Below, in pieces: positions 10,643 through 63,400 of a stretch of 64,000 nucleotides of DNA (the stretch's first letter is position 1; every line of letters begins with the position of its first letter). This DNA comes from Ilumatobacteraceae bacterium. GTDB lineage: Bacteria > Actinomycetota > Acidimicrobiia > Acidimicrobiales > Ilumatobacteraceae. Under the pieces are notes generated by a model that ran no database searches, was not told where the DNA came from, and saw nothing but the letters and a program-made list of their open reading frames with translations. The DNA lies in NCBI GenBank assembly GCA_036746695.1, contig DAIODP010000001.1, positions 1,642,787 to 1,706,786 on the forward strand, written 5' to 3'. A program made the translations under genes and the position numbers.

Positions 10643-11085
10643 TTAAAGTCGTTTTCGACAAAACTGTTTGGCCAATTGAACAACTTGATTTCATGGTCCC
10701 ATAACAAGCGAGCCATTGCTGCTCCGAAAGACGGATTCCTAAGCCAGAGTTTGTATGTTTAATTGAGGCGGGGGCGCCAAAGAAATAGAGGTGAATGCTT
10801 TAACTGACTTTGTTTGAAGCCTTGACGTATGCCCAACTTTTCACATCTGTTCTCAAGCATCCGTGTGTTGGTCATTTGTCACGACGGTGCGTTGAATAGA
10901 CAATCCATCATGCTGACAGGGTGCCAGTTGGCTAGATACCGTGAGTTCTTTGTTTCTAGCACGCGATCCAACATCCGCAAGCCCTGATGGAACCAGAAAG
11001 CACCCGTTGGACCCCTAAATTAGAGGTATGCCACTTTCAAACTCTGGGTTTGTGGCTTGCTCTTGGGGTTGTGTGCAATCCTTGA

Positions 11086-12276: not shown

Positions 12277-12409
12277 TTGGTTGCGCAGGTCTTTGGGGTT
12301 TCATAAATCACAAATGTGTCAACTGAACCACCAAAATCAAAAATTCAATTACAGCGAGCCATTGAAGCGCTTACATAACGGTGTCCTAAAATTCATGTTT
12401 AAAGAGTGC

Positions 12410-14200
12410 TTAATTTAGCGAACTCTCCAGAGCATCTAGCGCAGTTGCAAGTTCGCTTGGCAGGCGGTCACCGAAGGCGGCGTAGTGGTCGCGGATTTGG
12501 GGGACGGCCTCGCGCCAGCCCGGGACGTCCACCGAGGTGATGGCCTCGAGATCTTGGGCGTTGATGTGGAGGCCGTTTGTATCGAGGGAGTCGGTGGTGG
12601 GGAGGTAGCCGATGGGGGTTTGTTTTGCTTCGGCGGTGCCGTTGAGGCGGTCGAAGACCCATTTGAGGACACGGCTGTTTTCGCCGTAGCCCGGCCACAT
12701 GAAGTTGCCCGCTTCGTCGCGGCGGAACCAGTTGACGAAGAAGATTTGGGGGAGTTTTTCTTTATCGGTCTTTGTTCCTACTTGGAGCCAATGCTTGAAG
12801 TAGTCGGCCATGTTGTAGCCGCAGAAGGGGAGCATGGCCATTGGGTCGAAGCGGAGCTTGCCGACAGTGCCGCCGGCGGCGGCGGTGGTTTCGGAGGCCA
12901 TGATGGAGCCGAGGAAGACACCGTGGTTCCAGTCGAAGGCTTGGGTCACGAGTGGGACAGTGGTGCGGCGGCGGCCACCGAAGAGGATTGCAGAGATGGG
13001 GACGCCATTTGGGTCTTGCCATTCGGGGGCAATGCTGGGGCACTGGCTGGCGGGGGTGGTGAAGCGTGCGTTGGGGTGGGCTGCGGGTGCTTCGTTGTCT
13101 TTTGTCCAGGCGTTGTTCTTCCAGTCGGTGATTCCGGATGGAGTTTCCTTGGTCATGCCTTCCCACCAGACGTCGCCTTCAGATGTGAGGGCGGTGTTGG
13201 TGAAGATGGAGTTGCCCCACATGGTGCGCATGGCGTTGAGGTTTGTTTCGTCGCTGGTGAAGGGGGCGACGCCGAAGAAGCCGGCCTCGGGGTTGATGGC
13301 GTAGAGCTGGCCGTCGGGGCCGTACTTCATCCAGCAGATGTCGTCACCAATGGTTTCGGCTTTCCAGCCTGGGATGGTTGGGACGAGCATGGCGAGGTTG
13401 GTTTTGCCGCAGGCGGATGGGAATGCGGCGGCGATGTATTTGGATTCGTTTTGTGGGTTGGTGAGTTTGAGAATGAGCATGTGCTCGGCGAGCCAGCCGT
13501 TGTCGCGGGCCATGACGGAAGCAATGCGAAGAGCGAAACACTTTTTGCCGAGGAGGGCGTTGCCGCCGTAGCCGGAACCGAAGCTTTGGATTTCGCGGGT
13601 TTCGGGGAAGTGCACGATGTATTTGTTGTCGGGGTTGCATGGCCAGGAGACATCTTTTTGGCCGGGTGCAAGTGGGGCGCCGACGGAGTGCACGCAGGGA
13701 ACCCACTGATTGTTGCCGAGGGCATCGAGTGCGCCTTGGCCCATGCGGGTCATGATTCGCATGCTGACGGCAACGTAGGCGCTGTCGGTGAGTTGCACGC
13801 CGATGTGTGCGATGGGGGAACCGAGTGGGCCCATGCTGAAGGGGACGACGTACATCATGCGGCCGCGCATGGCGCCGGTGTAGAGCTTCTTCATTTCGGC
13901 GCGCATCTCGTTGGGGTCGCGCCAGTTGTTGTTGGGGCCTGCATCGATTTGGTTTGTTGAGCAGATGTAGGTGCGGTCTTCAACGCGGGCGACATCGCCC
14001 GGATCGGAGTGTGCCCAATAGGAGTTGGGGCGTGTGGATTCGTTCAGTTTGGTGAAGGTGCCTGCAAGGACCAAGTCTTCGCAGAGATCGTTGTATTCCT
14101 TTTCGCTGCCGTCGCACCAGTAGACGTCGTCGGGCTGCAAGATGTCGGCCCAATCGTTTACCCATTGTTTAAGTGCTGCGTTTTGTGTTTTGCCGCTCAT
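12410..14200 (-). CDS. pckG: Phosphoenolpyruvate carboxykinase (GTP)
   Basis: 596-aa ORF with typical GTP-PEPCK length and motifs ([10 protein letters not shown]-loop, [17 protein letters not shown]). Confidence 0.93.
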
Positions 14201-19721: not shown

Positions 19722-22700
19722 CTAAATCAGTTGTGGCGGTGGAGGTGGCGGCAGCTGGTCGTCTTTCCTGCGGCGCCTCATAATGAAGATGAACATCCAC
19801 ATGGCGCCCAGGCCGCCGAAGAACACCAGCGCAAGTTGCACCCAACTAGTTCCGCCCTGTCGGCCAGAGAGGGGGACCGAGTACTTGATGGGCTCGGCGC
19901 CATTAGCAATGAACTCGATTTCGAGTGCGCTTGATGTGGCATTCACCGGAAGTCGTATATCGGTCAGATTCTCGATGTTGTGGCTGGACCATGTTCCACC
20001 TGATGTTCGAACGCGAACGAGGCCAGTAGTGATGTTGATGTTGCGAGCAATGCTCGAGATGGAGTCGGCCGTAATCACGAATTCGGTTGTATCGCTATTG
20101 ATCACGATTTGAGAGTCGACCATCACCTTGACAGTTGGAGTGGTGGTGGAAGGGCTGAACGGTGCGAGCGAAGCGCCGGGCCCTTTCAGCGTTGTAGGTG
20201 ATGCAGGCGTTGTTGTTGGGGCGACAACGGGCTTGATGGAAACCGTGAAACTTAGTGGCGTGGCGGCCGCTGCCGAATAGTTGATGGTTGCTGGAACCGA
20301 GGCGTACACGGTGCAAACACCAGTAGCGAGCACGGTGAGCTTGCCACTTACGCGATCGATCGTGCAGACGCTGGTTGTAGAAGAAGCATGCGATATTTCA
20401 CCCTCGGAAGCACCAGCGCTGACGCGTGCCGTAATGGTCATGCCATTGAAATCGGTTGGTGAAATACTTCCGATTGTGGTGCTTTGCGGAAACGACAGCG
20501 TTCGGGTGGCCGCAGTCAGCGTGGCCTTCGCGGTGCTGGTTGGCACTGCGCGTGTGCGTTGGGAGTTGGTGGGAAGCAGTAGGTCTACTTCGCACACTCC
20601 GCTTGAGAGGAAGGTGGCGTAGGCGCGCTTTCCAAATGGCTCCTTCGTGGGCTCGCTTAACGAGCACACCGTTGGAGTGAGATTGACGAATCGCACATCG
20701 TCGTTTGCTTCGGTAACAAGCTTTTTTGTTCCGAATGGCATTGAAACAGTTGCCCAAAACGAAATGGTCTCGCCTTCAACAGACGACCAGGTGCTTGCGG
20801 CTCGAAGTGGAGTGTTGTTGATCTTTCCGCCAACTTTGATGCCAACGCGGGCAATTAACTTCGTCACTTCGAAACTGACGCTGGCTGTTGCAGCATCGTG
20901 TGTGTCGGTTGCGGCGATTGAGGCGGACATTGTGCAGGTGCCCGCCGAGTTGAGATAGCCAACACGAAACACGGTGTTGGATGCCGATGTTGCGCTGAGG
21001 CCGGTGACGTTAAGCGCCGAACAAATATCGGGCGTGTTGGTTGTCCACGTAACTACGCCGCCACCCGAAGATGGTGTTGCAAGTAACGACGGCCCGATGG
21101 CTAAGACGGGGTACGACGCGGCGGCACCAGTAATGCTCAGTGTGCGGGTGCGAGCAACTGTTGTTGTAGTTGTGGTTGTGGTTGGAGGTGCAACGGTGGT
21201 TGTTGGTGCAGGAGCAGGTGGTGCGGTTGTCGTTGTCGTTGTCGTTGTTGTTGGAGATGCAACGGTGACAACAACAGTCTGTGGCGAACCAACAAGGGTG
21301 GTTTGGGCATTGCCGACGGTATCGGTCATGGAAAACCCGGCTGCAGCAGTGAGGGTAGAACTGACTGGCACATCATCGGCCAGAGCGGTGGATGTTGCAG
21401 TGATTGTGCACACCGTGCCAGAGGTTTGAGCGATTGAGTTGATTGCAGAAATGTTGGTCAGTGTGAAGTCGGTGCCTGCCGAAGTCGACAGCGTGGAACA
21501 TGTGATGGCTTCGTCGCCAGTGACGGTGAAAGTGATGGTGGTGGATGTTGAAGTGGATGGGCTTGCGGCCAACGTGATGGTTGGTGCTGTGGTATCGATG
21601 ACGAGGGCCTTGTTTGCACCAAGTGAGTTAGCTGCACTAGGCGAAGCAAGCGTGAGCGTTGCGTTATTGCCAGCCGCGTCTCGGATGGTGCCAGAGTTGA
21701 GGGCCAGCGAAGTGGTTCCTACATAGTCCAAGTCGTTGCTGGTGTCGCCAGCCTGCACGGTGTACGTGAATGTGAGGGCAGTGGTGCCGCTGCCGGATGC
21801 ATAGTTGACAACACGGTCGGTTGTGCCGGTTTCGAGGGTGAGTTGTGGCGTGCCAGTAACCGTGACGGCTTCGTTGAAGTTGACTTGAATAGAGATTGTT
21901 GAGGTTGCCTTATACGAACCATTTGTTGAGGATGAATTGACCGACGAAACAGTTGGTGGGGTGGTGTCGGATGACGAGATGGTGACTATGGTTGATTGCG
22001 GTGAGCCGATTAATGTGGTCTGTGCGTTGCCTGGGGTTCCCGTGTCGGTGATTGAGAAGGTCCCTGCTGCGGTCAATGTGGAAGTTTTTGGGCCGCCACC
22101 AGAAGTGGCTGTGGATGTTGCGTTGATGGTGCACACCCTGGCCGATGTTTGAACGATCGAAGCAATTGCAGAAATGTTTGTGTACGTAAAGTCGGTGCCT
22201 GAAGCAGTGGACAGGGTGGCACAGTTGATGTCTTCGTTGCCCGTGATGGTGAACGAGATGGCGGTAGAAGTTGACGTGGCTGCGGATGCGGCCAATGTGA
22301 CAGTTGGGGGCATGTCACTTGTTTGGTAAGTGGCCTTTGTCGCGTCGTACTTGGCTAGGGCGTCGGCCAACGTGATTTCGCTGGCATAGATTCGAACCTC
22401 GCCAAGTTTGCCTTTTGCATTCCACACGGGTGACGAATAATCGTTGTCCATAAGCAGGAAGTTGCCACTGCTGTTAAACACACGCTGGTCATTGCTATCG
22501 CTGCAGGCGCCCGTTCTGCACAGCAAGCTTTGGGCGACACCGTCGACGTAGATTTTTTGACCGGTTTGTGAAGTGGTGCTGTCGTTCATGACAAATACGA
22601 AGTGGTGCCAGCCAGTTTTTAGGGTTGTGGCGTTAATTCCATAGACCTCGCTGCCAAACGTGTTGAAACCGAGGTAGTCGCTGTAGTGATACACGTTGTA

Positions 22701-23114
22701 GTTGAAAGAGCTGGGTTCACTCCACGAAAAGAGCATCGAGCCATAGGTGTTCTGTGTAGAACCATTGTCGTCCATGTACAGCCACATCTCGATAGACACG
22801 AAGTCGGTGCTTGCGGTTGAGCCGATGGTGCCCGTGACGCGGTCGCTGTTCGACGATTCTTTTCCCGCAAATACCACTTGAGCCGGCGATGCTGCGGTGG
22901 TCATACCGCCAGTTGGTGCGGTGCCGTTGCCTGTTGCGCCATTAGAGCCCGTGTTGGTCCAGGTAGTTGCACCGCTGGTGTAACCGCTTGCAAGGTATTC
23001 GACAACAGGCGTTGGAGCGGTGGCCAGCGACTGGGGTGTTGGGGGCACCGCTATGACAACAACAGAAAGAGTAAGCGCGGTAATCGCGAAACGATTTATG
23101 TGAAGTTTCATCAC
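19722..23114 (-). CDS. Large surface protein: signal peptide, LamG/ConA-like domain, repeated Ig-like domains, poly-Thr linker, C-terminal TM anchor
   Basis: 1130 aa. N-terminal [22 protein letters not shown]. LamG-like block (WHHFVFV...KIYVDG...LGEVRIY). Two ~110-aa repeats (PPTVTLAAS... and APTITLAAS...). T8[12 protein letters not shown] linker. The end reads [27 protein letters not shown]. Confidence 0.85.
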
Positions 23115-23182
23115 AAAAACATAGCGCAGGTGTGAGGAATATTTACATCAGGTGGGCAATGTGTGCCTTTAGTCGTAAAGGG

Positions 23183-46218: not shown

Positions 46219-47070
46219 ATGGCCTCGCAACCAAGCAACACATTTCGCCACGATGGCCACGCTTACACCGTGACGATGATTGAACCAAGGTTTGGCGCAT
46301 CGGGGCAACCATCAGCCGAGGCACTAAAGCGCACAATTGTTGAACGCCCCAAAGTAACCAAAGCGAATCGGGGCAAAACGGTTACGGTCACCGGATATTT
46401 CGCGCCTGCAAGGTTTGAAATCAAAGGATTTCGCCACCCAATCGAAATTGAAACGGCGCAAACCCCGATCACCGGTGCACCCCTCACAATTCAATGGATT
46501 GGCATAGGTACGCGCGGAACATTGGCCTCGATTACCGATTGGATTACGCAAGGCCAAATATCGCTAGACAATTTGCCAATGCGCAAAATCCTTATGGCGG
46601 CCATAAAGGCAAGCGCGTTTACTGCAACCACCACGGCAGTTGATGAAATTACGGAAACAATTGATTTGGGTGGCGGTAAGTCAAAAACCCTAACGATGAA
46701 AATTGGTGACGCGCCACGATTTATGAAATTTAGAAATTCGCCCGATGTTGTATTTACGCGCATCGGCGGCGAGGCAATGCAAGTAAAGAAAACCGCCAAA
46801 GCTCTTAGCGCGCCAACGCAAGTGGAAGCAATCCATCGCGCTGATGCCGCACCAATGAAATCACCGCAAGCATTGAAGCGCATTGCCGACCTATTCACCA
46901 TTGCAGATCAATTGGGCAAAGTCGGCCGCGGTTATAAGCCAATTGCGGAATGGATTGAAATTCAAACCAACGGCCAACGGCCTGCAACTACCGCACAGCA
47001 AATGATCTCGATGGCACGCAAAGCCGGATACCTACCGAAAATCAAAGCAAAGAAACGGGGCACTAAATGA
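46219..47070 (+). CDS. Element-encoded hypothetical protein
   Basis: 283-aa ORF whose stop overlaps the integrase start (ATGA). No family recognised. Confidence 0.55.
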   Translation: MASQPSNTFRHDGHAYTVTMIEPRFGASGQPSAEALKRTIVERPKVTKANRGKTVTVTGYFAPARFEIKGFRHPIEIETAQTPITGAPLTIQWIGIGTRGTLASITDWITQGQISLDNLPMRKILMAAIKASAFTATTTAVDEITETIDLGGGKSKTLTMKIGDAPRFMKFRNSPDVVFTRIGGEAMQVKKTAKALSAPTQVEAIHRADAAPMKSPQALKRIADLFTIADQLGKVGRGYKPIAEWIEIQTNGQRPATTAQQMISMARKAGYLPKIKAKKRGTK

Positions 47071-48539
47071 GTCAGCAACGCGGCACGATTACCAAACGCA
47101 ATAACGCTTGGTGCTATCGATTTAGTTACTTAGACAGCAACGGCAACCGGCGTTGGAAATCCGCGCAAGGTTTCAAAACCAAAGCCGATGCGCAACGGTT
47201 TATGATTTCGCACATTGCCGAAATTGACAGCGGCAAAGGCATCAACCCCGCCAAAATTTCGCTTGCTGATTACTTGACGGCGTGGCTAGATGAATATCGG
47301 CGGGCAAATAGTGGCCGCAAAGCAACCACCATCGCCGAAACGCGCACCAACATCAATGCCTACATTCTGCCGATGCTGTGCAACCAATCTGATCGGCCGC
47401 TGATGCTTGCAAAATTGAAACCCGAAACGGTTGCCCGATTCGCCGCCGATTTACTTGACCACGGCCGCCGAGGCGTAAACGGCAATGCAGGCGGGGCGCT
47501 ATCGCCTAAGAGTGTGCGCAACATCGTTGCCACTTTGCGTAATGCGTTGGAAACGGCGCGTAGGCGTGGGCACATACCAAGCAACCCCGCCGATCACATC
47601 GAATTACCAAAATGGGTGCGGCGAGATTTGCAGGTTTGGGAGTCGGCACAATTCGCACATTTCTTGACCGTTGCCGCGGCCGCTGATGACTATTGCTATG
47701 CGCTTTGGCGCTTGGTCATCGCTACCGGTATGCGCCGCGGTGAGTTGCTTGGCTTGCGTTGGGCTGATGTCGAATTGGTTGATTTGGAACGGGGCGCAAC
47801 GGTGACCATTCGGCAGGCGCGGGTATCTGACGGGTACACCGTCACCACCACCACACCGAAAACCAAAGCGGGTAGGCGCACCATCGCGATTGATTCCGGC
47901 ACGGTGATCGCGTTGGCATTTCTAAAGAATCAGCAAGCCGCCGCCGCCGAAGCTTTGGGTTTGCCAAATTTCGAATTTGTGGCCACCGACCTAGACGGCC
48001 GACTAATCAAGCCCGCCACATTGCTTGACCGATTCCACGCCGCCACACAGCGCGCCGACCTACCGAAATGCCGCTTGCACGATTTACGCCACAGCGCCGC
48101 CGCCTACCAATTGGAAATCGGCACACCGGTGCACATCGTTGCAGGGCGCTTGGGGCACGCATCGCCCGCAACCACTTTGAACATATATGCCGCATTTCTG
48201 CCAACGGCCGACCGAGGCGCAAGCAATGAAATCGGGGCGACCCTTGACCGGCTAATGGCAAATGACCAAACGCGCACATTGCAGGCCATTGGCGAAAACC
48301 AAAACGGCGGCACGGCCAATGCCGCTAAGGATTTGATTCAAAGCAAAGCGCGCACCAAACGCGCACCGAATTTAGAAAAGCACAGCGATTTAGGCACTAC
48401 TAGCGCACACCACGCAAACATAGAACCCAATCAAAATAACGGAAACACTTCTAGCGGTAACGCCGAAATAGTGCCCCCCCTCGGATTCGAACCGAGGACC
48501 TGCGGATTAAGAGTCCGTTGCTCTAACCAACTGAGCTAG
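47067..48539 (+). CDS. Tyrosine recombinase / phage-type integrase
   Basis: N-terminal SAM-like domain, then the catalytic region ATGMRRGELLGLRW...HDLRHSAAA...GRLGHASPATTLNIYAAF. The ORF continues ~115 aa past the catalytic Tyr, across attR and antisense into the tRNA. Confidence 0.88.
   Translation: MSQQRGTITKRNNAWCYRFSYLDSNGNRRWKSAQGFKTKADAQRFMISHIAEIDSGKGINPAKISLADYLTAWLDEYRRANSGRKATTIAETRTNINAYILPMLCNQSDRPLMLAKLKPETVARFAADLLDHGRRGVNGNAGGALSPKSVRNIVATLRNALETARRRGHIPSNPADHIELPKWVRRDLQVWESAQFAHFLTVAAAADDYCYALWRLVIATGMRRGELLGLRWADVELVDLERGATVTIRQARVSDGYTVTTTTPKTKAGRRTIAIDSGTVIALAFLKNQQAAAAEALGLPNFEFVATDLDGRLIKPATLLDRFHAATQRADLPKCRLHDLRHSAAAYQLEIGTPVHIVAGRLGHASPATTLNIYAAFLPTADRGASNEIGATLDRLMANDQTRTLQAIGENQNGGTANAAKDLIQSKARTKRAPNLEKHSDLGTTSAHHANIEPNQNNGNTSSGNAEIVPPLGFEPRTCGLRVRCSNQLS
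48469..48493. repeat. attR: 25-bp direct repeat inside tRNA-Lys
   Basis: Identical to 44764-44788. Confidence 0.85.
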
Positions 48540-48545
48540 AGGGGC
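48472..48545 (-). tRNA. tRNA-Lys (anticodon CTT)
   Basis: The reverse complement GCCCCTCTAGCTCAGTTGGTTAGAGCAACGGACTCTTAATCCGCAGGTCCTCGGTTCGAATCCGAGGGGGGGCA folds as a cloverleaf. Anticodon loop is CTCTTAA. CCA is not encoded. Confidence 0.85.
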
Positions 48546-48628
48546 AACTACTAACCCCGAGAGCATATAACACCGTATGACCCAGCGAAAATTGACGAAA
48601 AGGGGCGCCCGTGAGCATCGCGAGAAAT

Positions 48629-48660
48629 GAAAATGGTGGCACCTAGGTGCCACCATTTTC
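48629..48660. terminator. Bidirectional terminator-like hairpin, repeat copy 1
   Basis: gaaaatggtggcac-ctag-gtgccaccattttc, a 14-bp perfect stem with an A-tract before and a T-tract after. Confidence 0.6.
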
Positions 48661-48739
48661 ATATTGCAGGGTTTGTCTGGAATTTCCAGAGTGCATTTCG
48701 CCAAATCAAAGGCTACCGCAAGTGTGTCCGTGGAAATAA

Positions 48740-48767
48740 AAATGGCGACACCGAAGTGTCGCCATTT
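48740..48767. terminator. Bidirectional terminator-like hairpin, repeat copy 2
   Basis: aaatggcgacac-cgaa-gtgtcgccattt, a 12-bp stem. Confidence 0.6.
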
Positions 48768-48856
48768 CTAACCACGAGGTTTCTGGAATTATCCAGCGTG
48801 TTTCGTCACTCGTAAGAGTACCGAATACCTGTACTTCCGGGAACCCTAAAGATTTA

Positions 48857-48908
48857 CGGGGCGGACGATCGACCTCAAACCCCGGCATCTAGGACCGCAA
48901 CTTGGCGC
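48857..48908 (-). pseudogene. Partial, diverged copy of the tRNA-His 3' portion
   Basis: cggggcggacgatcgacctcaaaccccggcatctaggaccgcaacttggcgc aligns with 49265-49316 of the intact tRNA-His. The anticodon position is changed (GTG to GCG), the T-arm is broken, and the 5' half is missing. Confidence 0.65.
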
Positions 48909-48932
48909 AGGCAGGCACGGCAAGAAATGAAC

Positions 48933-48960
48933 AAGACCGACAGGTTGCCCTGCCGGTCTT
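48933..48960. terminator. Hairpin (12-bp stem, one mismatch)
   Basis: aagaccgacagg-ttgc-cctgccggtctt. Confidence 0.4.
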
Positions 48961-49032
48961 GACTACTTGATGTTTTCCTGATTCGTCATTTCCAGGTAAG
49001 AAGCTTCGCGACTACTTCATCGTTCGTTTTGT

Positions 49033-49107
49033 TGGAGCCATGAACTGGAATCGAACCGGCACCACGTGGCTGACGAGGCACGCATGCTGCCGTTACACCA
49101 TCAAGGC
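49033..49107 (-). pseudogene. Degenerate tRNA-like sequence (anticodon loop would read CGT, Thr)
   Basis: The reverse complement has a canonical GGTTCGATTCC T-loop and an encoded CCA. However, it has a T:T mismatch in the acceptor stem, a C:A mismatch in the T-stem, a one-base bulge in the anticodon stem, and a pyrimidine at position 37. Confidence 0.4.
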
Positions 49108-49147
49108 ACCAGTGAAATGTGTACTGGAAAGTGCGAGTGTGGAAATA

Positions 49148-49177
49148 AAAATGACGGCACATAAGTGCCGTCATTTT
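49148..49177. terminator. Bidirectional terminator-like hairpin, repeat copy 3 (downstream of tRNA-His)
   Basis: aaaatgacggcac-ataa-gtgccgtcatttt, a 13-bp stem. On the minus strand it is followed by TTTTTATTT. Confidence 0.65.
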
Positions 49178-49264
49178 CAACCACGCGGTTTTATTCTGTA
49201 CTTTTGTGCCTCGTCACTGATAAGAGTACCGAAAACCTATATTTCGGCAAACCCTTGAGATTTA

Positions 49265-49342
49265 TGGGGTGGACGAGGGGTCTCGAACCCCCGGCCTCCA
49301 GGACCACAACCTGGCGCTCTAACCAACTGAGCTACGCCCACC
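49265..49342 (-). tRNA. tRNA-His (anticodon GTG)
   Basis: The reverse complement GGTGGGCGTAGCTCAGTTGGTTAGAGCGCCAGGTTGTGGTCCTGGAGGCCGGGGGTTCGAGACCCCTCGTCCACCCCA has the extra G-1 typical of tRNA-His, anticodon loop TTGTGGT, and an encoded CCA. Confidence 0.88.
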
Positions 49343-51283: not shown

Positions 51284-51400
51284 TTTCCGACCCTCGACCA
51301 ACAGTTGAGTTTCGAAGCTGCAAAATCTTTTTGGAATTTCGTCTGGTTATAACACTTTTAGATTTGCGTTAATTTTTTTTAGATTCTTAAGTTTCATTCC

Positions 51401-54400
51401 ATGCGCGGAGTGCTTGGAATCAATCGTTTTTGGTGCGCGCGCGCACTCAGGCGTCTCGGTTCCCTTATCGCGTCATTTGCTGCGATTGTTGCATTGTTTC
51501 CTGTCGCTCAGGCAAGCGCCGCGGAGCAGTCTGAGCCCGTGCGCGTATGCACCGAAACGCCAATCGTCGAGGAGCCTCCGACCGAGTCAACAACGTCGAC
51601 TTCCTCAACGTCAAGTGTTCCGACGTCGAGTACTTCCAGCACTTCAACTTCTTCGACCTCGAGTGTTCCAACGTCGAGTACTTCCAGCACTTCAACTTCT
51701 TCGACCTCGAGTACTACCACCACGGAGGTAGTTGAGACTCTGTCGGTAACGAGGCTTGCGACCGAAGATTCAAGCACATCGAGCACATCGAGCACATCGA
51801 GCACATCGTCTACTTCGACCACGTCGACGACTACTCCAACGACCTCCACTTCGAGCACTTCGTCTACGTCGTCTACGTCGTCTACGTCGTCCACTTCGTC
51901 TACGTCGTCCACTTCGTCTACGTCGTCCACTTCGTCTACGTCGTCCACTTCGACAACTACTCCAATTTCTTCCACGACGAGCACAACGGTGCCAACCGAG
52001 GAATCCGATGTTGTCACCACCAGTTGTCCAGCAACTCCGCGCAACGTGGTTGCTACTGGTGGTGACAATTCAATCGTTCTGACTTGGGACGAACCCGAAG
52101 AAGGGACCCCACAGCCCACTGCCTATTTGGCGCTGGTTTCTCCGGGCGAAGTCGAGTTTCGTATTGATGCCCCCAAGACCACAGCTGTCTTGGGCGGTCT
52201 GCTGAATGGAAAGGTGTACGAGGTTCGATTCTTTGCCGAGAACGAATCAGGGCTGAGTGAGTTGGCAGGCCCATTCGAGGTTGCACCGACCAACGGTCTT
52301 GACGGGGTAGTCGGGCGTTTGGTTGTGCAGTACGAAGACGGTGTTGCCTCAACCGAGGCGCCGGGTGTGGCAACCGGATCCAGTTCGGTAAGTGGCATAG
52401 AACTGGTGCCCGAGGTGGACTTGGGCGATGGCCTGCGCACTGTAGAACTCAGCGAGCCAGTATCCGTTGCAACCGCTGCTCAAATTGTGGCCGAGCTTGA
52501 AGCTGACGAACGGGTGAAATGGGCAGAAGTCGACCAGGTGGTCACCACTGCCAGCGCCGAGCCAACAGCCGAGAATCTTGACCCCGATTACCTCGACCGA
52601 CAGTGGAACATGTGGTCTGAATTCGGCGTTGGCGGATCAAAACTATTTCCCTCAACCTTTGGTCGAGGCCCAAAGGACTTGGGCAAGGGCGTAACGGTTG
52701 CAGTAATTGACACTGGCATTACTCGCCATTCGGATTTTGGATCCCGTGTGTTGCCTGGATACGACTTCGTGTCAAGCAGGGCCGAGTTGGCGGCAGCACG
52801 GCAAGCAGATGGTGATGAGGTCGCATTCGATGGTGACTATGTCGACGAAGATGAGTACGGCCCCGTGGGTTGGGACAACAACGCACTTGACCCCGGTGAT
52901 TGGCGCGAAGTAGCGCCAGTGCGCAACAGCAGTTGGCACGGAACCCACGTTGCAGGAATCATTGGCGCGGAAGTAAATAACGCAAACGGAATTGCAGGCT
53001 TGGTTCCACTCGTCGACATTCTTCCCGTGCGCGCACTGAGTTGGCGCGGTGGTTTGTCTTCAGATATTGCTGCCTCAATTATTTGGGCGTCGGGTGGAAG
53101 CGTCGAGGGTGTTGAAGACAACCCAAATCCAGCTCAAGTAATCAACCTGTCGTTTACGACTAAGGCCGCTTGCAGTGAAACATTTCAAAAGGCGATTGAT
53201 GCAGCAGTTGCCAATGGCAGTGTTGTTGCCGTTGCTGCAGGTAACGCCAACAGTGATGTGCGCGACTATGCGCCTGCCAATTGCAATAACGTTGTTGCGG
53301 TTGGTGCAACCGATGCAACCGGCAAGCGCGCCGCGTATTCAAACTTCGGTGAAGGTATCGACATCTCTGCTCCTGGCGGCGACGTCAACGCAAGTGGAGA
53401 CCTTGGTGTGTATTCACTTTCCAATTCGGGAGAGCGCGAACCAGGCGATGATTCGTATGCCTATCGACAAGGAACATCGATGTCGGCGGCACACGTTACG
53501 GCTGCACTTGCCCGCTTGTCGGCTTTGCATCCGAACGCGAAGCCGCTTGAACTCATTTCGATGCTCACGAACAAAGCATCAGTTCGGCCGTTTGCTGATG
53601 ATTCGTGTGACGCCGAACAAGAAAAACTGTGCGGAAGCGGCATCGTTGAAATCGCCAGCAACCCACTCAGCCCGGGTTCGCTCACTGCCGCTGCTGGAGT
53701 GCGCTCGGTTTCGTTGAAGTGGCCTTTGCCTGTCGACGCATCGATCACCGGAGTGTCGATCAAGTGGGGCACCGATGCAAGTGCGCTTACAAACCAGTTC
53801 ACCGTTGCTGGCAGAACAGTAAATAGCTTTGTGCATTCGGGTTCGCCGGTGCGGGTGACCAATAAGGCACTTGCATCGAATATCGCAACGCTCACCACCG
53901 GCACTGCGCACGGTTTGGTGGTTGGCGATTCGGTCGCTGTTTCGGGGGTGGACGCAACATTCAACGGAACACATGTAATCCGTACAGTCACCTCAACAAC
54001 GTTTACGTACTCACGAACTGCAGCAAACGTAACTTCGGTTGCGCTGACCACTGCAGGAAATGCGCAACGAGCAGAGTCGCTCACGATCGGTCAAACGTAT
54101 TACTACCAAATTGCGTATATCTACACCAATAACGCGCAGTCGTGCACCACTGCCTGTATTAGCGACTATGCATCGGTTGTTTCGGCACAAACGCAATTCT
54201 TGGCAAGCACGAATTTTGCAAACACAGGCGCAATTCAGACCTACACAGTTCCAACAGGAGTCACATCAATTCTTGTGGATGCTGTTGGTGCTGCAGGTGG
54301 TTCCACTGCAACAATCACCGGCGGATTGGGTGGTCGCGTACAGGCATCCATTCCCACCACGCAGGGTGAAGTGTTGTTTGTTTTCGTCGGTGGTACTTCC

Positions 54401-57400
54401 GGCACGAATGCGGTGGGTTGGAACGGTGGTGGTGCCGGAACTGCGCCGGGCATGGGTGGTGGCGGAGCATCCGACATACGTCGAGGTTTTTCTGTAACGA
54501 AAGCTTCGATGTCGGGCACCACTGCAACATTGACGACTACAACTGCGCACGGCTTTGCTGTTGGAAATGCAATTCTTGTGGCGAATATCGGCACAACCTA
54601 CGACGGCACCTACACCGTTTTGGCTGTTCCAACGACCACAACTTTTACGTACACAAAAACGGGTGGATCAACCACGAGTGAAACGACTGGATTGTCAGGT
54701 GCGGTAATTCAAACGTTGCCATCACTCGGTCTGGCTCGCCGAATTTTGGTTGCTGGTGGCGGTGGCGGTGCGGGTTCGCACGCCAAGGCGGGCGGTGGCG
54801 GAGAACTCATTGGAGAAACGGCAACAGGCTGGGGCGTTGCGGGTGCTGCTGGCGGCACGCAATCAACTGGCAATGCACTTGCCGTTGGTGGCAATGGAAC
54901 AACCAATGCTGGCGGTGGCGGTGGCGGTTATTACGGCGGTCGAGGTGGAGCCGATTATGGCGGCGGCGGCGGTGGGTCCTCATTCGTTGATGCAGGTGTA
55001 TTCGGCGTGGTGCACACCCAGGCATATTCGCTAGCAACGGGAAATGGTTCGTTAAAGATTTCGCTTCCAAACGCTGCCACCATGCCGACACCCACTTCAT
55101 TTGCGGGCACCGCGTGGTCGAGGACGACAGAACTTACTTGGGCCGCTCCAGTCGTGGATGGCGTAACGGGCTATCGAATTAAATGGGGTACCGACAACAC
55201 AACTGTCAATCAGATCGATGTTGCTGGCGGAGACGTTCGCTCGTTTACGCATTCCAGCCGACCATTTGCCGTTAGTTCAAAGTCAATGACCACAACGGTT
55301 GCAACACTGACAACTTCGGTTGATCATGGATTAGCAATTGGTCAACAGGTTTCGGTAACAGGTGTTGACGCTGTGTTCAACGGCATCTACACCATTGCGT
55401 CAGTTCCAACAACGAAGACATTTACTTATGCACGAACGGGAACGGCCGTGTCTGCAACTGCGGTCTCACCAACTGGTTTGGTGCAACGAACAAACAACTT
55501 GGTGCTTGGGCAGAACTACTTCTACAAGATCGCTGCCATTTATACCGACATCACTCAGCCGTGCGGAACGTCATGTCTTTCGTCGTACACATCGACAATC
55601 ACGGTTGATGGAAAAGTGGGCAACTCGCAAACTTTCGAGTTCAACGACGGCACGCACACCTACAAAGTTCCACCCGATGTAACCAAAATTCAGGTTGACG
55701 CGCAAGGTGGTGCTGGCGGATCTTCCGGTGCCATTGCCGGTGGTTTTGGCGGGCGATTGCAAGCAACGGTTCCCGTAACACCTGGCGAAACACTGTTTAT
55801 TTATGTTGGTGGTGGTGGTGGCAATCACTACCCATTTACGTACAAAGTGCCAATCACTGGTGGGCGAAATGGCGGTGGTGCGGGAGTAGGTAACGGCTCT
55901 GGTGGCGGTGGCGCAACCGATATTCGTCGCGGGTTTACCGTCACGAATGCGGCGCTCACCAGTAATTTTGCAACACTCACCACGTCTGTTGCTCACGGCT
56001 TTGCAGTGAGTAACTATGTTGTGGTTGCAGGTTTAAGTGACACCTTTAATGGCAGTTACATCATTACTGCAGTAACCACCAACACGTTTACTTACGCGAA
56101 AGAAGCTGCCAACGTAACTTCTTCCACTGTTGATGGTGCGGTGTTCTACTTAAACCCTGCCCTCGGGCTTTCGCAGCGAGTGTTGGTTGCCGGCGGCGGT
56201 GGCGGCGTTGGGCACGCTGCATATGTAGGCGGTGCAGGTGGCGGGTTGGTTGGCGGTGTGGGTGGGTCGCATTCGTGTGGCACCTATTGCGGTGGTTTGG
56301 GTGGTTCGCAAACATTCGGAAATGCTTTTGGTGTTGGTGGAAACGCAACGACAACTAATTCTGGTGGTGGCGGTGGCGGTTATCGCGGCGGCTATTCCGG
56401 TGGTCAATCCGGTCAGCCAGATGCTCGCGGTACTGATGGGTATTCGGGTGGTGGCGGTGGTTCAAGCTGGACAGCGTCCGACATTGTGTTTGCGACGCAT
56501 ACCCAGGGCTTCCGCAATGGCAACGGTTTGCTCACCATTACTACTGCGCAAACCGCAGCAGTTTCCACGCCAGTAGACCTCGCTGCTTATGGTTGGAACA
56601 CTCGTGTTCATGTTTCGTGGGCTGCGTCGACAAATCAGGAAACCACTGGTTATCGAATTAAGTGGGGCACTGCATCGGGCGCACTCACGAATGTGATCAA
56701 TGTTGCTGGCCGCGATGTCGTGGAATATGTTCATACCAGCCGCGCCATGGGTACGCGCTATTTCTATTCCATCGCTGCTGTGTTCACGGATATGAATCAG
56801 GATTGCTTGGCGGAATGTCTTTCAGATTTTTCTGCAGAGGTGTCGGACACTCCGCGGTTTACTGCAGCAACAAGTTTCGACTTCACAGAAACCATTCAGT
56901 CGTACACCGTGCCGGCGGGTGTTAGCCGTATCAATGTCAGCGCGCAAGGTGCGCAAGGTGGCAGTGCTTCGGCGGTAGGTGGTCTGGGTGGCATTGTTTC
57001 TGCCACGATGCCGGTGACAGCAGGTGAAACCCTATTTGTGTTCGTTGGCGGTGGTGGCGGTGACAATCATCCTGCGAGGTACCAAGCGCCAAGTGTGGGC
57101 GGATGGAACGGTGGCGGAACAGGAAACAGTTCTGGAGGAATTGGTGGCGGTGGTGGTGGTGCGACAGACATTCGCAGAGGCACTTCGGTAACAAATGCGG
57201 TGCTGACGTCACGAGTAGCAACGTTGACAACATCTGTTGCTCATGGCTTTGCTGTTGGCAACTCGGTTGTCGTCGCTGGCGTCGGTGCTCTCTACGACGG
57301 GACATATTCAGTAACGGCAGTTACCTCAACAACTTTTTCGTATGCGAAGGTCGAACTCGATCAGGCATCTTCAACAGTGAATGGTGCAGTCATTCGCAAC

Positions 57401-60400
57401 CTGACCACTGCAAACCTCGATCGACGAGTGGTAGTTGCTGGCGGCGGCGGTGGTATTGGCCACAACGTGCGTGTGGGAGGTGCCGGTGGTGGGCTGACTG
57501 GCGGTGAAGGTGCAAACCACGGTTGTCCTTCATACTGTGCTGGCCTTGGTGGTTCGCAAACGTATGGCAATGCCTTAGGGGTTGGTGCTTCGGCAACGGT
57601 GACGGGGGCCGGTGCAGGTGGCGGCGGTTATTGGGGTGGTTATGCCTCTGGACAAAGCCCGCAGCAGTGGCGCTCGGAAACGGGTGGTTACTCCGGCGGT
57701 GGAGGTGGCTCAAGTTGGACTGCCAGCAACCTCAGTTTTGTTACGCACTCTCAAGGTGCAAAGTCGGGCAACGGAAAACTAGAAATTTATGCGCAACAAG
57801 GCGGCTCGATTAGCGCTCCTACCAATTTCGATGCCTATGGCTATCAGGCACAGGTGGTGTTGAGTTGGACGCCTTCACCGCAACCCATCGTTTCGGGGTA
57901 CAGAATCTCGTGGGGTACTTCACAAGGCGTGCTGACGAACAACATTGATGTACCTGATCGTCTGGCACAAAGTTTTGTACACCACGGAAACACATTTTCA
58001 GTAACAACAAAATCACTCGCCACAAATGTGGCAACGCTTACGACGAGCTCTACGCATGGAATCGCTGTTGGCAACGAATTCATTGTGCAAGGTGCCGGCG
58101 AACCGTTCGACGGCACTTATACGGCCACAACAGGCACGACGGGAACAACCATTAAGTACGCGCGAACAAACGCGAACGTGGCGTTGGCATCCATAAGCCC
58201 TGCCGCTGTTGTCTCGCGCACGAAACAACTTGCCATTAACACCACCTACTACTACGAAATCTCTGCGTTGTATACCGATGCCGCACAGACATGCAACACA
58301 ACATGCGAATCGGGTTCTTCCACGCAGCGTTATGCAACTCCAATTTTTACTCAGGACACAACGTTTGATGCAACTGGTGGAGTGCAAACCTTCACGGTGC
58401 CGGCTGGCGTGTCGTGGCTGCAGTTTGATGCGCAAGGTGCTGGTGGTGGCAGGGGTGGGACTGGTATCGGCGGTTTCGGTGGTCGCGTGCAGGGCGCAAT
58501 TCCGGTTACGTCTGGCGAAGTGTTGTATCTGTATGTAGGTGGCAGGGGCGGAGGTTCGCTCAATGCCACGCAACACGTTGGTGGTTGGAACGGTGGCGGT
58601 AACGGTTCCGCTGTGGGGCAGGGCGGCGGCGGTGGTGGCGCTACTGATATTCGTCGCAACAAGCTTGTTGTAACGAACAAAATTATTCAGTCAAGTACTG
58701 CAACGTTGACGACTGCAGCGACTCATGGACTGAGTGTTGGTGATTCGGTCATCGTTTCTGGTGTTGGTACCGAATTCAATGGAACATTTACCCTGACCGC
58801 AATCAACGCCACAAACAAGACCTTGTCGTATGCGGTGTCGACATCTTCATTTACTGCTGCTTCGTCTTCGGGAACAGTTTCTGGTCCAAGTGCTTGGGAC
58901 ACTGCAGCGTCACTTGCCACTCGCGTAGTGGTTGCCGGTGGTGCGGGCGGTGGCGGCAACGACAAGGTTGGTGGTATTGGTGGCGGGCTCGTTGCTGGTC
59001 AGGGTGGAAGCAATAGCTGTGCAAATGGTGCTGCAAGTGAAAACTGTTCCGGTCTTGGTGGCTCCCAAACGTATGGCAATGCTCTTGGTGTTGGTGGAAA
59101 CGCGGCAGCAACTCATTCGGGTGGCGGTGGCGGTGGTTATTGGGGCGGTTGGGGTGCGGCTCAATCGCCGCAACTAAGTCGCGTCGCAACGGGCGGCTAC
59201 TCCGGTGGCGGTGGCGGATCCAGCTTCACTTCTGCTGCAGCGCTGTCGTCACTTGACCAACGCACGATTTCTGGAATAACTCACACCAGTGGCTTCAATC
59301 AATCCGGTGGAGTGCTCACGCTGTCGGTGCCAACTCGCGCATACCCAACTGGTGTTGAAGCACTGGGTTGGGGTGGATATAACTCAATTAGTTGGGATGC
59401 TTCGAACATTACAGGTGTAACGCAATACAAGGTGTACGGCGGCACGACACAGAACCCCACCACGTTGCTAGCAACACTGCCTGTCGGAATAAATGCTTTC
59501 GACCATCATCTTGCAACACCAATTGTGGTCTCTCAAAAGGCCCTCACCAGCAACGTGGTAACACTGACAACAGCTTCAGCGCACGGATTTTCGGTTGGCA
59601 CAGTTGTTTCCGTAAGCGGAGTCGATCCTGCGTTCAACGGGCTTCGAACAATTACCGCAGTTGCCAATACCACCTTGTCGTTCGCATTCACCGCTGCAAA
59701 CATTGCGTCAACTGCAATTCAATCTGGCGTCGTTCAGTCGGCAAACAGTTTGACGTACGGAACCGCCTATTACTACCGAGTTTCGATCATGACCGGCTCA
59801 ATCGAGTCGCAACGTTCGACAGAGGTTTCTGCGACGCCCGCTTTGAGCAGTTCAACTTCGTTTGAATCGACTGGTGCTGTGCAAACATTTACGGTTCCTG
59901 TCAACGTCAACAAGATATTCATTGATGCACTTGGTGCTGGAGGCGCAAGAGGTACGACAGGTGTCGGTGGCGCGGGTGGTCGCGCGCAGGGCGCAATTCC
60001 GGTTACTCCTGGCGAAGTGTTGTATCTGTATGTGGGCGGCAAGGGCGGCGGTTCGCTCACTTCCACGCTGAACATTGGTGGTTGGAATGGCGGCGGTAAC
60101 GGTTCTGGCGCGGGTGCTGGTGGTGGCGGTGGTGGTGCAACTGATATTCGTCGCAACAAGCTTGTAGTTACGAACAAAATTATTCAGTCAAGTACTGCAA
60201 CGTTGACGACTGCAGCGACTCATGGACTGAGTGTTGGTGATTCGGTCATCGTTTCTGGTGTTGGTACCGAATTCAATGGAACATTTACCCTGACCGCAAT
60301 TGACGCCGCAAACAAGAAATTGTCCTATGCGGTTTCAACTGCAACGTTTGCAACTTCTACCTCTTCGGGAACAGTGTCAGGGCCGAGCGCATGGAACACA

Positions 60401-63400
60401 GCCGCATCACTTGCAACACGCGTGCTCGTTGCTGGTGGCGGCGGTGGAGGTGGAAACAATAACTTTGGTGGTGTAGGCGGAGGCTTGATTGGCGGCGAAG
60501 GTGGAAACCACAGTTGCTATCAGGGGTATTGCGCTGGTTTTGGTGGTTCGCAAACGTATGGCAACGCACTTGGTGTTGGTGGCGCAACGGGCCAAACCAA
60601 TGCCGGTGGCGGCGGCGGTGGTTATTGGGGTGGTTGGGCCTCGGGCCAGGCGCATCTCGACCGAACAGGAACTCTTGGCTACTCCGGCGGCGGTGGCGGA
60701 TCTAGTTTCACGAGCGCTGACGTTACGTCTGTTTTCCATGCCCAAGGGATGAATTCTGATGCGGGCAGCGCGGTCATCTCGTGGACTTCTACGCCCATCG
60801 TTACTGGAGTTCAAGCCACTCCACTGAATGCTTCTATTGCTGTCAGCTGGAATGCGTCAAACCTTGGGTCGTTGTCCGGATATCGCGTGTACGGCGGTAC
60901 GACTGCGGCACCAACAACATTGTTGGCAACGGTTGGTGCTGGTGTACTGGGCTACACGCACACCGGGTTAACAAATGGAACGACTTACTTTTACCGAATT
61001 TCGGCCATAGTCACCGAAAACGGTGTAACTACAGCGACCCCGCTATCGGGTGATGCTTCGGCAACGCCAACGACACTTACGACAACAGACTTTGCATCCA
61101 CTGGTGCGGTGCAAACTTTTGTGGTTCCTGCTGGCGTGTTGTGGCTGCAACTCGATGCATCTGGCGCGCAAGGCGGCACTGGTAGCACTGGCGTCGGTGG
61201 TCGTGGTGGGCGAACGCAGGGCGCTCTTGAAGTAGTGCCAGGAGAAACGCTGTATTTCTATGTTGGCGCAGCAGGTGCTCAAAATATTGGTGGTTTTAAT
61301 GGCGGAGGTAACGGTTCTGGCGCGGGTGCTGGTGGTGGCGGTGGTGGTGCCACTGATGTTCGTCGTAACAGGCTTGTTGTCACGAACAAAGCACTTGCAT
61401 CAAATGTTGCAACGCTGACAACTGCATTTGCTCATGGATATAGCGTCGGCAATACGATCATTGTGCAAGGTGTTGGCGAACCGTTTGATGGCACGTACAC
61501 AACTATTACTGGAACAACGGGATCAACCATTAAGTATTCGCGAACAAATGCGGATATTTCTTCAACAGCGGTAAGTGGAACCGTGTCGGGTCCAAGTACA
61601 TGGAACACAGCCGCATCACTTGCAACGCGCGTGCTCGTTGCTGGTGGTGGCGGTGGAGGTGGAAACAATAACTTTGGTGGTGTAGGCGGAGGTTTAATTG
61701 GCGGCGAAGGTGGAAACCACAGTTGCTATCAGGGGTATTGCGCTGGTTTTGGTGGTTCGCAAACGTATGGCAACGCACTTGGTGTTGGTGGCGCAACGGG
61801 CCAAACCAATGCCGGTGGCGGCGGCGGTGGTTATTGGGGTGGTTGGGCCTCGGGCCAGGCGCATCTCGACCGAACAGGAACTCTTGGTTATTCCGGTGGT
61901 GGTGGCGGTTCCAGCTTCACGGCAAGCGACGTTGCCGTTCCGGTGCACACTCAAGGATTCAAGTCGGGTGCAGGGTCGCTAACAGTTTCGTATTCGGTAG
62001 ACAACACGCCACCAGTGGTGACCGGTATTTCATCGCCGAATCCATCTGGTAACTACATCGTGGGGAGAGAAATAACGGTCAACGTTGCGTTTTCAAAAGC
62101 CGTAGTAGTTACTGGTACACCAACATTGCTGCTGGATGCTGGCACGCGCGATGTAACAGTCAACTACGTGTCGGGCAGCGGTACTTCTACGTTGACATTT
62201 ACTTATGTGGTTGCAACTGGAGACTTGAAGGACGAACTTGATGTCAAGAGCACGACTGCGCTCGCTCTTCCAACTTCTCCAGCCGGCACCATTAAGGACC
62301 GTGCAGGAAATAATGCGGTGCTCACATTGCCGGAAGTTGCTAGTGCGGCATCATTAAGCGGAAGTAAATTGTTAGCAATCGATGGAGTGGTTCCAATAAA
62401 GCCAACCGTACTTACGGCAGCCGGTGTAGATGGAATCACGCTCGATTGGGCGGACAACCTGGAAACAGATTTGAAGGAGTACCGAATCTATTCCTGCTCT
62501 GGCCTTGTGGCGTCAAGTTGTTCATCGCTGTCTTCGTTCAGCGTGCTCAGCAGTGTTGTTTCGGGTGTAAGTACGTTCGAGCACATTGCAGTGGGCCGCG
62601 GTATTTCGTACTACTACTACGTAACAGCAGTAGACCTTCGCGGCAACGAGAGCCCTGCATCAGACCGCATTTCGTGGATGTTGCCGGTGCCGGTGCTGGT
62701 TGCCACTCCAACTGTGGTGGTTGCAACGCCAACAAATGACCTCACACCCCAAGTGACAGGTGCAGCCGACGCGGGCGCGACGGTGTACGTGTATCTCGAT
62801 GGAAGCTCGACGCCACTCGGTTCAACGGTTGCAACTAGTGAAGGCGCGTACGCATTTTCTCCGCCATCGAACATTTCGGCGGGCACGCACACCTTTAGGG
62901 CGCGCGCAGTTGTCACAGGCGTAAAAACAGGAACATCTGGATTTTCAAATTCGGCTTCTGTCGACATCGATACGACGGCGCCATCGCTCTCCAGCATTTC
63001 GCGATTTGCTCCATCATCGGAAACCACAGGTTTGGATGCGTTGACTTTCAGGTTGATCTTTACGGAGGCAGTAAGCGGGTTGTTGGCAGATGATTTTGCG
63101 ATTTCTGGGTCGACGGCCACGGTTTCCCGAATTGCAATGCTCAGTGGATCAACGGGAACGTACGACGTAACCGTTTCTGGAGGCAACCTCGCTGATCGCA
63201 ACGGAGTAATCGGGCTGACGCTTGCTACGGGGGCAACAGTCACCGATATTGCAGGAAATGCGCTATCGAGCACTACGTCATCAACAACGCCACAAACATA
63301 CACATTGGACAACCGAAACCCTGTTGCAACAATTACTTCGTCTGCAACAACATTGGGCGGGGCGAATACGGCGACCATTACCTTTACGTTGGATCAATCA

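Follow-up and report, generated by a model that had tools for sequence, protein, structure and literature searches.

A Giant Protein with Ten Copies of One Cassette

In the 64,000-nucleotide stretch of Ilumatobacteraceae DNA analyzed here (contig DAIODP010000001.1; the whole stretch is referred to as the window), a stop-free frame on the + strand extends from position 51383 to the window end, giving 4,206 codons with the first ATG at 51401. This open reading frame (ORF) encodes a giant secreted or surface protein. Behind a signal-peptide-like N-terminus and a Ser/Thr-rich stretch, it has a fibronectin type III (FN3) domain and an S8 subtilase, then six modules that each consist of one FN3 domain and one ALK/LTK-type glycine-rich domain (GRD), and finally immunoglobulin (Ig)-like repeats of the Big_13/Big_12 type. 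Within the six modules, a cassette of about 73 amino acids occurs ten times, interrupting all of the GRDs and four of the six FN3 domains (Table 1).

The host domains can be identified despite these interruptions. Pfam profiles detect Peptidase_S8 (171.7 bits), six ALK_LTK_GRD domains (PF12810), fn3, Big_12, and Big_13 in the ORF, and no propeller, sialidase, E1 adenylation, or ThiF domain. The PF12810 halves score 118.4 and 131 bits against a Pfam cut-off of 24.5, and the ALK-like nature of the GRD host is also evident in a predicted structure of module 1, which Foldseek matches to 7nx1, 7lrz, and 7n00 with a probability of 1.00. For fn3 (PF00041; cut-off 25), the scores of 25.9 and 28.7 bits come from modules 3 and 6, whose FN3 copies are uninterrupted (21.7 bits when the FN3 of module 3 is scored alone), and the interrupted copies are not detected by this profile in the ORF. 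In the AlphaFold 2 (AF2) model, the strands A–G of an interrupted FN3 domain surround the insert, and the top Foldseek match is the FN3 array 6tpw.

Several analyses agree on the number of copies. A search with the motif xxTL(T/S)T plus HG..VG returns the ten cassette sites and one unrelated match. A hidden Markov model (HMM) built from the ten copies recovers exactly these ten in the ORF, at 85–100 bits each; these scores are circular, and independent support comes from matches to PHROG phage families and from 5,101 protein clusters elsewhere. Finally, the alignment of the six modules displays a block of about 80 residues in the FN3 domains of modules 1, 2, 4, and 5, which is cleanly absent in modules 3 and 6, and places the GRD cassettes between ATD(I/V)RR and R(V/I)(L/V)VAGG in all six cases. 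The original prediction, made from the letters and their translations, had described this very arrangement of ten copies, with the GRDs interrupted between ATDIRR and RVLVAGGGG and the same four FN3 domains split. Its positions were accurate to within a few bases: FN3-1 lies at 53846–54070, and the stretches quoted for FN3-4 and GRD-6 lie at about 58073–58186 and 61451–61564.

Table 1. Features of the giant ORF, in window coordinates; cassettes are named after the host domain and the module number.
Feature	Position	Strand	Evidence or remark
Giant secreted or surface protein ORF	51401–64000, runs past window end	+	>4,200 aa; stop-free frame and Pfam
Module 1, FN3 and GRD both interrupted	53669–55066	+	Module alignment, AF2 model, Foldseek
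Cassette FN3-1, between FN3 strand E (SFVHS) and strand F (TYYYQIAYIY)	53846–54070	+	HMM envelope aa 822–896
Cassette GRD-1, in GRD hairpin	54485–54712	+	HMM envelope aa 1035–1110; pLDDT 91–95 in module model
Cassette FN3-2	55262–55489	+	HMM envelope aa 1294–1369
Cassette GRD-2	55931–56149	+	HMM envelope aa 1517–1589
Module 3, FN3 uninterrupted, GRD interrupted	56546–57793	+	Alignment gap of ~80 residues; fn3N followed directly by fn3C
Cassette GRD-3	57179–57397	+	HMM envelope aa 1933–2005
Cassette FN3-4, subtype VQGAGEPFDGTYT..TGTTGTTIKY	57992–58219	+	HMM envelope aa 2204–2279
Cassette GRD-4	58661–58885	+	HMM envelope aa 2427–2501; best E1_FCCH match of the window, 28.7 bits
Cassette FN3-5	59519–59740	+	HMM envelope aa 2713–2786
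Cassette GRD-5	60158–60382	+	HMM; 88% aa and 89% nt identical to GRD-4
Module 6, FN3 uninterrupted, GRD interrupted	60788–61993	+	Sliding-window identity; repeat family D3
Cassette GRD-6, chimera	61370–61591	+	HMM envelope aa 3330–3403; informative-site run
GRD-6 core tract	61462–61575	+	74% nt to FN3-4 (58084–58197), 41% to GRD-5; ungapped repeat D5

The Cassette as a Nested Domain

Structure prediction indicates that the cassette is, very probably, a separable domain nested within its two hosts. When FN3-1 is folded alone by AF2 from a 44-member family alignment, it gives six β-strands with a predicted local distance difference test (pLDDT) value of 96.9 and a predicted template modeling score of 0.85. 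The whole of module 1 is modeled with a pLDDT of 79.4, the FN3 domain, the two barrels, and the N-terminal half of the GRD being confident, and both cassettes show the same six strands as the isolated one (for FN3-1, residues 61–69, 72–77, 88–92, 100–103, 111–115, and 121–134). Since the FN3 strands A, B, C, C′, and E precede the insert and strands F and G follow it (flanking strands at pLDDT 84–96), the insert occupies the E–F loop, between strand E and the strand F with the motif L..G..YYY. In the GRD, the cassette sits at the tip of the hairpin. The module model as a whole is matched by Foldseek to FN3 arrays, to the ALK/LTK GRD, and to the endosialidases 1v0e, 3gvj, and 4hiz.

The consequences of the insertion can be followed in the GRD profile. 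All six GRDs of the window are split into two PF12810 stretches at the hairpin, and none has a short continuous hairpin there. After in silico removal of the cassette from GRD-6, the two stretches (53 bits) merge into one match that spans profile positions 12–203 (79.7 bits). In the ALK/LTK glycine-rich domain (PF12810; 7lrz, 7n00, 7nx1), the hairpin is short, with 5–7 residues in human ALK, unlike in the window, where a 73-residue barrel and a linker of about ten residues split the domain. The short hairpin of ALK, which the original prediction had named, was verified by aligning the profile of uninterrupted bacterial GRDs (...GGGasDiRiggasladRvvvAgGgGG) with the ALK chain 7mzy_A. This profile reaches ALK at E=2.6e-6 and was needed to do so, as a phmmer search of the PDB with the cassette-free GRD-6 gave no match.

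Uninterrupted counterparts of both hosts occur, in the same protein or in relatives. Among the relatives fetched, 23 GRD junctions carry a hairpin of 5–7 residues (e.g., SDIRRGGQTLSDRILVAGGG) and 25 carry one cassette; for the FN3 junctions, the counts are 8 uninterrupted and 17 with one cassette. In other phyla, the tblastn matches to the module mostly end at query residues 240–273 and none goes past 288, the cassette starting at about residue 273. The interrupted forms constitute a small group of freshwater actinobacterial proteins. In one related actinobacterial protein (P0049, residues ~87–136), the GRD bears a half-deleted cassette, namely, a 48-residue insert that keeps TVTLTTSAAHGFTVG and is followed by the post-cassette linker, which suggests that cassettes can decay through internal deletion.

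Fold and Family of the Cassette

The original prediction had left the cassette without a named family. A family can be named, as the cassette is by its predicted fold a six-stranded β-barrel like FCCH, the first catalytic cysteine half-domain of ubiquitin E1 (compare Pfam E1_FCCH, PF16190). In the window, GRD-4 gives the best E1_FCCH score, which is 28.7 bits when a three-module stretch is scored, versus a gathering cut-off of 29.5; when single cassettes are compared with the profile, the best E-value is 0.0024 and four of the ten match at all. Three of the relatives tested, with cassettes of the same family, score 43.6, 41.1, and 38.9 bits and thus exceed the cut-off; two others score 32.7 and 25.1 bits.

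The assignment is borne out by the predicted structure. Foldseek searches of the PDB with the cassette model return only two kinds of top match, the FCCH domains of Uba1/Uba6 and the barrels of phage endosialidases. To the former (6dc6, 9qim, 7sol, and the isolated domain 2v31), the probability is 0.99–1.00 and the template modeling (TM) score 0.59–0.69; to the latter (4hiz, 1v0e, 3gvj, 3ju4), the probability is up to 1.00 and the TM score 0.65–0.68, with a root-mean-square deviation of 3.0–3.1 Å. The profile of the ten copies (A1) found chance-level matches only among PDB sequences, and the endosialidase surfaced only with a broader profile (A5), which reaches residues 197–259 of the phi92 endosialidase 4hiz_A at a marginal E=0.013, the HG..VGD.V motif being common to both. 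With the same broader profile, the tail-tube chain 9n71_B came up only at E=0.4, a chance level, and no E1 chain was matched at E up to 10.

With the E1 FCCH domain (PF16190; 2v31, 6dc6, 7sol), the cassette shares the closed six-stranded barrel and a similar size. It differs in context, as the giant ORF is extracellular and has no E1 adenylation or ThiF domain and is thus not an E1 enzyme. The resemblance is therefore one of fold, not of function, and the name E1_FCCH is misleading here because nothing relates to ubiquitin. The FCCH domain of E1 enzymes is itself nested inside another domain, the E1 adenylation domain. The endosialidase barrel (K1F endoNF 1v0e/3ju4; phi92 4hiz) is the only solved relative found by a sequence profile and is likewise a small barrel attached to a larger, in this case catalytic, domain; its association is with the GH58 β-propeller, whereas the hosts of the cassette are FN3 and GRD. 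Stummeyer et al. reportedly described this barrel in 2005 as inserted in the β-propeller.

Probable Exchange between Host Domains

FN3-4 and GRD-6, although hosted by different domains, are reciprocal best matches among the ten copies (61% amino acid and 66% nucleotide identity), as had been claimed. The pair was independently recovered by a repeat finder (58001–58174 versus 61379–61552, 72% ungapped identity). The other cassette pairs are 31–56% identical at the amino acid level, except for GRD-4/GRD-5 (88%) and GRD-2/GRD-3 (62%). In a three-way comparison, the core of GRD-6 is 74% identical in nucleotides to FN3-4 versus 41% to GRD-5, and at the edges its identity to GRD-5 is 70% and 86%. 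The corresponding segmentation score was reached in 0 of 2,000 shuffles. The chimeric structure of GRD-6 supports an exchange of cassettes between host domains, and gene conversion is likely to have brought it about. The proposed move from one host to the other is more aptly called a partial conversion, limited to the FN3-4-like core, with edges that still resemble GRD-5.

Cassettes otherwise tend to group by host. When 60 cassettes were labeled by context, 97% had their nearest neighbor in the same host type; the nearest neighbors of GRD-6 in this set are FN3-4 and the FN3-4 orthologue of a related protein (P0043), which is 88% identical to FN3-4 and occupies the same FN3 position. Sliding-window comparison of modules 5 and 6 gives a DNA identity of 90–100% on either side of the cassette and 35–66% inside it, and the flanks form a repeat family of 300 nucleotides at 97%. 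In orthologues of module 6 from other metagenome-assembled genomes (MAGs), the host parts are mostly 80–88% identical (one GRD C-half 71%) and the cassette 49–53%. Modules 4 and 5 are 96–100% identical over the first two-thirds of the cassette.

More generally, between 58400 and 61900, tracts of 100–300 nucleotides at 96–100% identity among modules 4, 5, and 6 alternate with diverged tracts. This mosaic points either to intragenic gene conversion or to chimeric assembly of a repetitive gene. The relationship of FN3-4 to GRD-6, at 66–74% identity, is unaffected by a possible misassembly.

The ratio of nonsynonymous to synonymous substitution rates (dN/dS) was 0.03 in one orthologue comparison of the FN3-hosted cassette, 0.26 in two comparisons of the GRD-hosted cassette, and 0.04–0.20 in the host parts. 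With values of 0.03–0.26, the cassettes are under purifying selection, and positive selection on them was considered and not found. A recent horizontal transfer from a phage into the giant gene was also rejected, as outside cassettes are at most 66% identical and no recent donor was found.

Relatives in Phages and Other Proteins

The cassette family is large: of 1.84 billion representatives searched, 5,101 clusters match at E≤1e-3, and 1,682 still do so at E≤1e-10. In proteins without FN3 or GRD, it forms tandem arrays that can reach 23 copies. According to PHROG and BFVD, the family is found in virion proteins, comprising tail fibers, baseplate wedge, baseplate J, major tail, and Dit-like proteins; the window cassettes match PHROGs 9998, 19630, 529, 701, and 584, and BFVD models match the cassette with TM scores up to 0.96. 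The tail tubes of siphophages have recently been described as bearing outward-facing "FCCH domains" (2026; PMC13576161). The FCCH-type domains of phage tails (tail tube gp39/gp13; Dit-like PF22768) belong to the same sequence family as the cassette, but they are terminal fusions or tandem arrays, whereas those of the giant protein are single copies nested in domains of a cellular protein. In one phage Dit-like protein with seven cassettes (P0074), nesting of the array in the SPP1_Dit C-terminal domain was considered; splicing out the cassettes extends the alignment to the profile from positions 42–97 to 2–97, with no gain in score (34.4 bits, compared with 35.7 before). A profile search for homologous proteins with the cassette returned only fragments of about 100 residues without context.

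Cassettes in unrelated proteins are 50–66% identical to the window copies, the median among paralogues being 39–47%. The upper value is reached by a protein with three cassettes (P0114), whose gene has a tape-measure gene upstream. It is encoded on the JGI contig Ga0673007_000276 (L080), whose positions 1–14078 hold a phage tail-gene cluster with the tape-measure protein, proteins of 1,523 and 412 residues, a 305-residue protein that matches E1_FCCH weakly, and a small H_lectin protein. Elsewhere, a cassette is combined with an N-terminal TadE/G-like pilus-assembly domain (P0117) or with CBM_5_12 (P0113), so the family is not limited to phage tails and the giant protein. Literature searches returned nothing on E1_FCCH in phages, nothing on the endosialidase β-barrel domain together with the β-propeller, and no relevant paper on bacterial ALK-type GRDs.

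Proposed Mechanism and Function

The barrel fold and its family are already known, and the match to E1_FCCH lowers the novelty of the cassette accordingly. New here are the two sites at which single FCCH-like barrels are nested, an FN3 loop and the hairpin of an ALK-type GRD, together with evidence for conversion between them. The explanation that we find probable on balance, taken as a whole, is that of an autonomous FCCH-like barrel which resides in two host loops, diversifies by recombination, and serves as a binding knob. The six-stranded barrel is very probably spliced into the tip of the GRD hairpin and into the FN3 E–F loop, with both hosts keeping their own folds. Its long first and last strands are expected to pair, so that the ends would lie close together and the barrel would project as a knob; this pairing fits the other contexts of the fold, in which the barrel is likewise inserted (E1 adenylation domain, endosialidase propeller). 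The copies probably diversify in part through recombination between cassettes, one conversion tract having placed an FN3-type core into a GRD-hosted copy. The knobs could present binding surfaces to the outside, with cell-surface glycans as the most likely target, and a rigid FN3/GRD scaffold that bears ten such knobs could provide multivalent adhesion or direct the N-terminal S8 protease to its substrates.

The functional part of this proposal is the more tentative one. That the cassette binds a glycan or another ligand is a possibility to which we would give somewhat less than even weight; it is suggested by the endosialidase barrel, which holds a sialic-acid binding site in the K1F enzyme (PMC12632334), by the outward orientation of the FCCH domains on siphophage tail tubes (PMC13576161), and by the concentration of the family in phage host-recognition parts, including the tail-gene cluster with the tape-measure and H_lectin genes. 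A broader version, which we regard as speculative and improbable, would make the cassette a portable glycan-binding module common to freshwater actinobacteria and their phages. The phages would use it for docking, and the host would display ten copies to bind glycans of its own or neighboring cell walls or as a decoy or competitor for phage receptors, gene conversion re-tuning the specificity. If true, the tolerance of the barrel by at least four unrelated hosts (E1 adenylation domain, endosialidase propeller, FN3, and GRD) would make it a natural general-purpose "insertable" domain.

The main rival to a binding role is structural decoration, in which the cassette is a rigid knob that braces or spaces the FN3 and GRD domains or thickens a fiber without any specific ligand. 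A structural role of this kind is often assumed for the decoration domains of phage tail tubes. It would suit the residues conserved in the family (T, L, T, T, H, G, V, G), which look core- or turn-like rather than pocket-like, and the FN3-hosted cassette, which is as constrained as its host (dN/dS 0.03 vs 0.04). For the FCCH domains of siphophage tail tubes, too, the published description is confined to outward-facing "petals" and shows no ligand (PMC13576161). We nevertheless consider it unlikely that decoration is the whole story: the same fold binds sialic acid in the endosialidase (PMC12632334), the family is concentrated in Dit-like, baseplate, and fiber proteins, and two of the six FN3 domains manage without a cassette, which is thus not needed for the geometry of the module. 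It is far less probable still, and indeed hardly credible, that the segment represents an enlarged, lineage-specific strand set of the FN3 and GRD folds instead of a separate domain. In the module model, the long first and last strands do continue those of the host without a flexible linker, yet the cassette folds alone with high confidence, the family forms long arrays where FN3 and GRD are absent, uninterrupted hosts exist, and the PF12810 match improves once the cassette is removed. Of the two outcomes that the original prediction had named as counting against a new nested cassette, the integral strand set was rejected on the basis of isolated folding, the module model, and in silico removal, and the match to a known Pfam domain was found in part.

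As for the likeness of FN3-4 and GRD-6, a third source (another gene or a phage, for instance) could have supplied the same subtype to each of them separately, or the mosaic could be an assembly artefact. The subtype (...FDGTFTTITGSTGTTIKY...) does occur in the GRD of a different relative, cassettes of unrelated proteins are often closer to the window copies than the paralogue median, and an identity of only 74% between FN3-4 and the GRD-6 core implies that the event is old or indirect; near-identical tracts between modules also invite misassembly. Such an origin is nonetheless distinctly doubtful, given that the nearest context-labeled neighbors of GRD-6 are FN3-4 and its orthologue, that no outside cassette comes closer than 58% to GRD-6, and that the chimeric edges match the neighboring module of the same gene. 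Several points weigh against the overall explanation of a recombining, ligand-binding barrel. All structures used are predictions, and the closeness of the cassette ends is itself inferred; the glycine-rich half of the GRD is poorly modeled (pLDDT 37–48). The window copies fall just below the E1_FCCH cut-off (28.7 vs 29.5 bits), and the identity to the endosialidase barrel in the Foldseek alignments is only 22–24%. The module 4–6 tracts at 96–100% identity could partly result from short-read misassembly. In E1 enzymes, this fold is not known to have a lectin role.

The arrangement is of interest beyond this protein. Two unrelated folds of the same polypeptide accommodate one small barrel in their loops, with uninterrupted controls adjacent, which makes this a useful case for understanding and engineering domain insertion into FN3 scaffolds. 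It also shows that bacterial ALK-type GRDs can bear an accessory module at the hairpin tip. In annotation, "E1_FCCH" matches of bacteria and phages should be read as marking an extracellular barrel for decoration or adhesion rather than ubiquitin chemistry. Lastly, the presence of cassettes with 50–66% identity in cellular surface proteins and phage tail proteins of the same habitat is a lead on host–phage recognition in freshwater Actinomycetota.

Genomic Setting and Other Observations

The genes neighboring the giant ORF are chromosomal (SMC, Ffh, PhoX, RecG). The closest genomes in tblastn searches with the module are MAGs of freshwater Actinomycetota, namely, a river MAG (88% identity) and members of the Acidimicrobiales (73%), Ca. 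Nanopelagicales (47%), and Ilumatobacteraceae (40%). Within the ORF, a long Ser/Thr-rich low-complexity run (TSSTSS... repeats) at 51600–52000, between the signal peptide and the first FN3 domain, probably forms an extended and possibly glycosylated stalk.

Upstream of the giant gene, a tyrosine integrase (47067–48536) overlaps with its 3′ end a tRNA-Lys(ctt) on the opposite strand (48471–48545); a tRNA-like call with a four-base anticodon (49033–49107) and a tRNA-His (49265–49341), about 2 kb upstream of the giant gene, follow. The stretch 47067–49341 may be the edge of an integrated element. On the − strand, an open frame of 1,141 codons at 19725–23147 has no Pfam match at E≤1e-5. The first part of the window (1–12300) is a low-GC block (39–47% vs 52–59% elsewhere in the window) rich in defense-type genes, which encode two helicases (NERD+SF1 and UvrD-like), two restriction enzymes (one HpaII-type with a C5 DNA methylase, the other AspBHI_N/Mrr-type), and a protein with an MrfA Zn-binding domain; the block has the appearance of a defense island gained by horizontal transfer.

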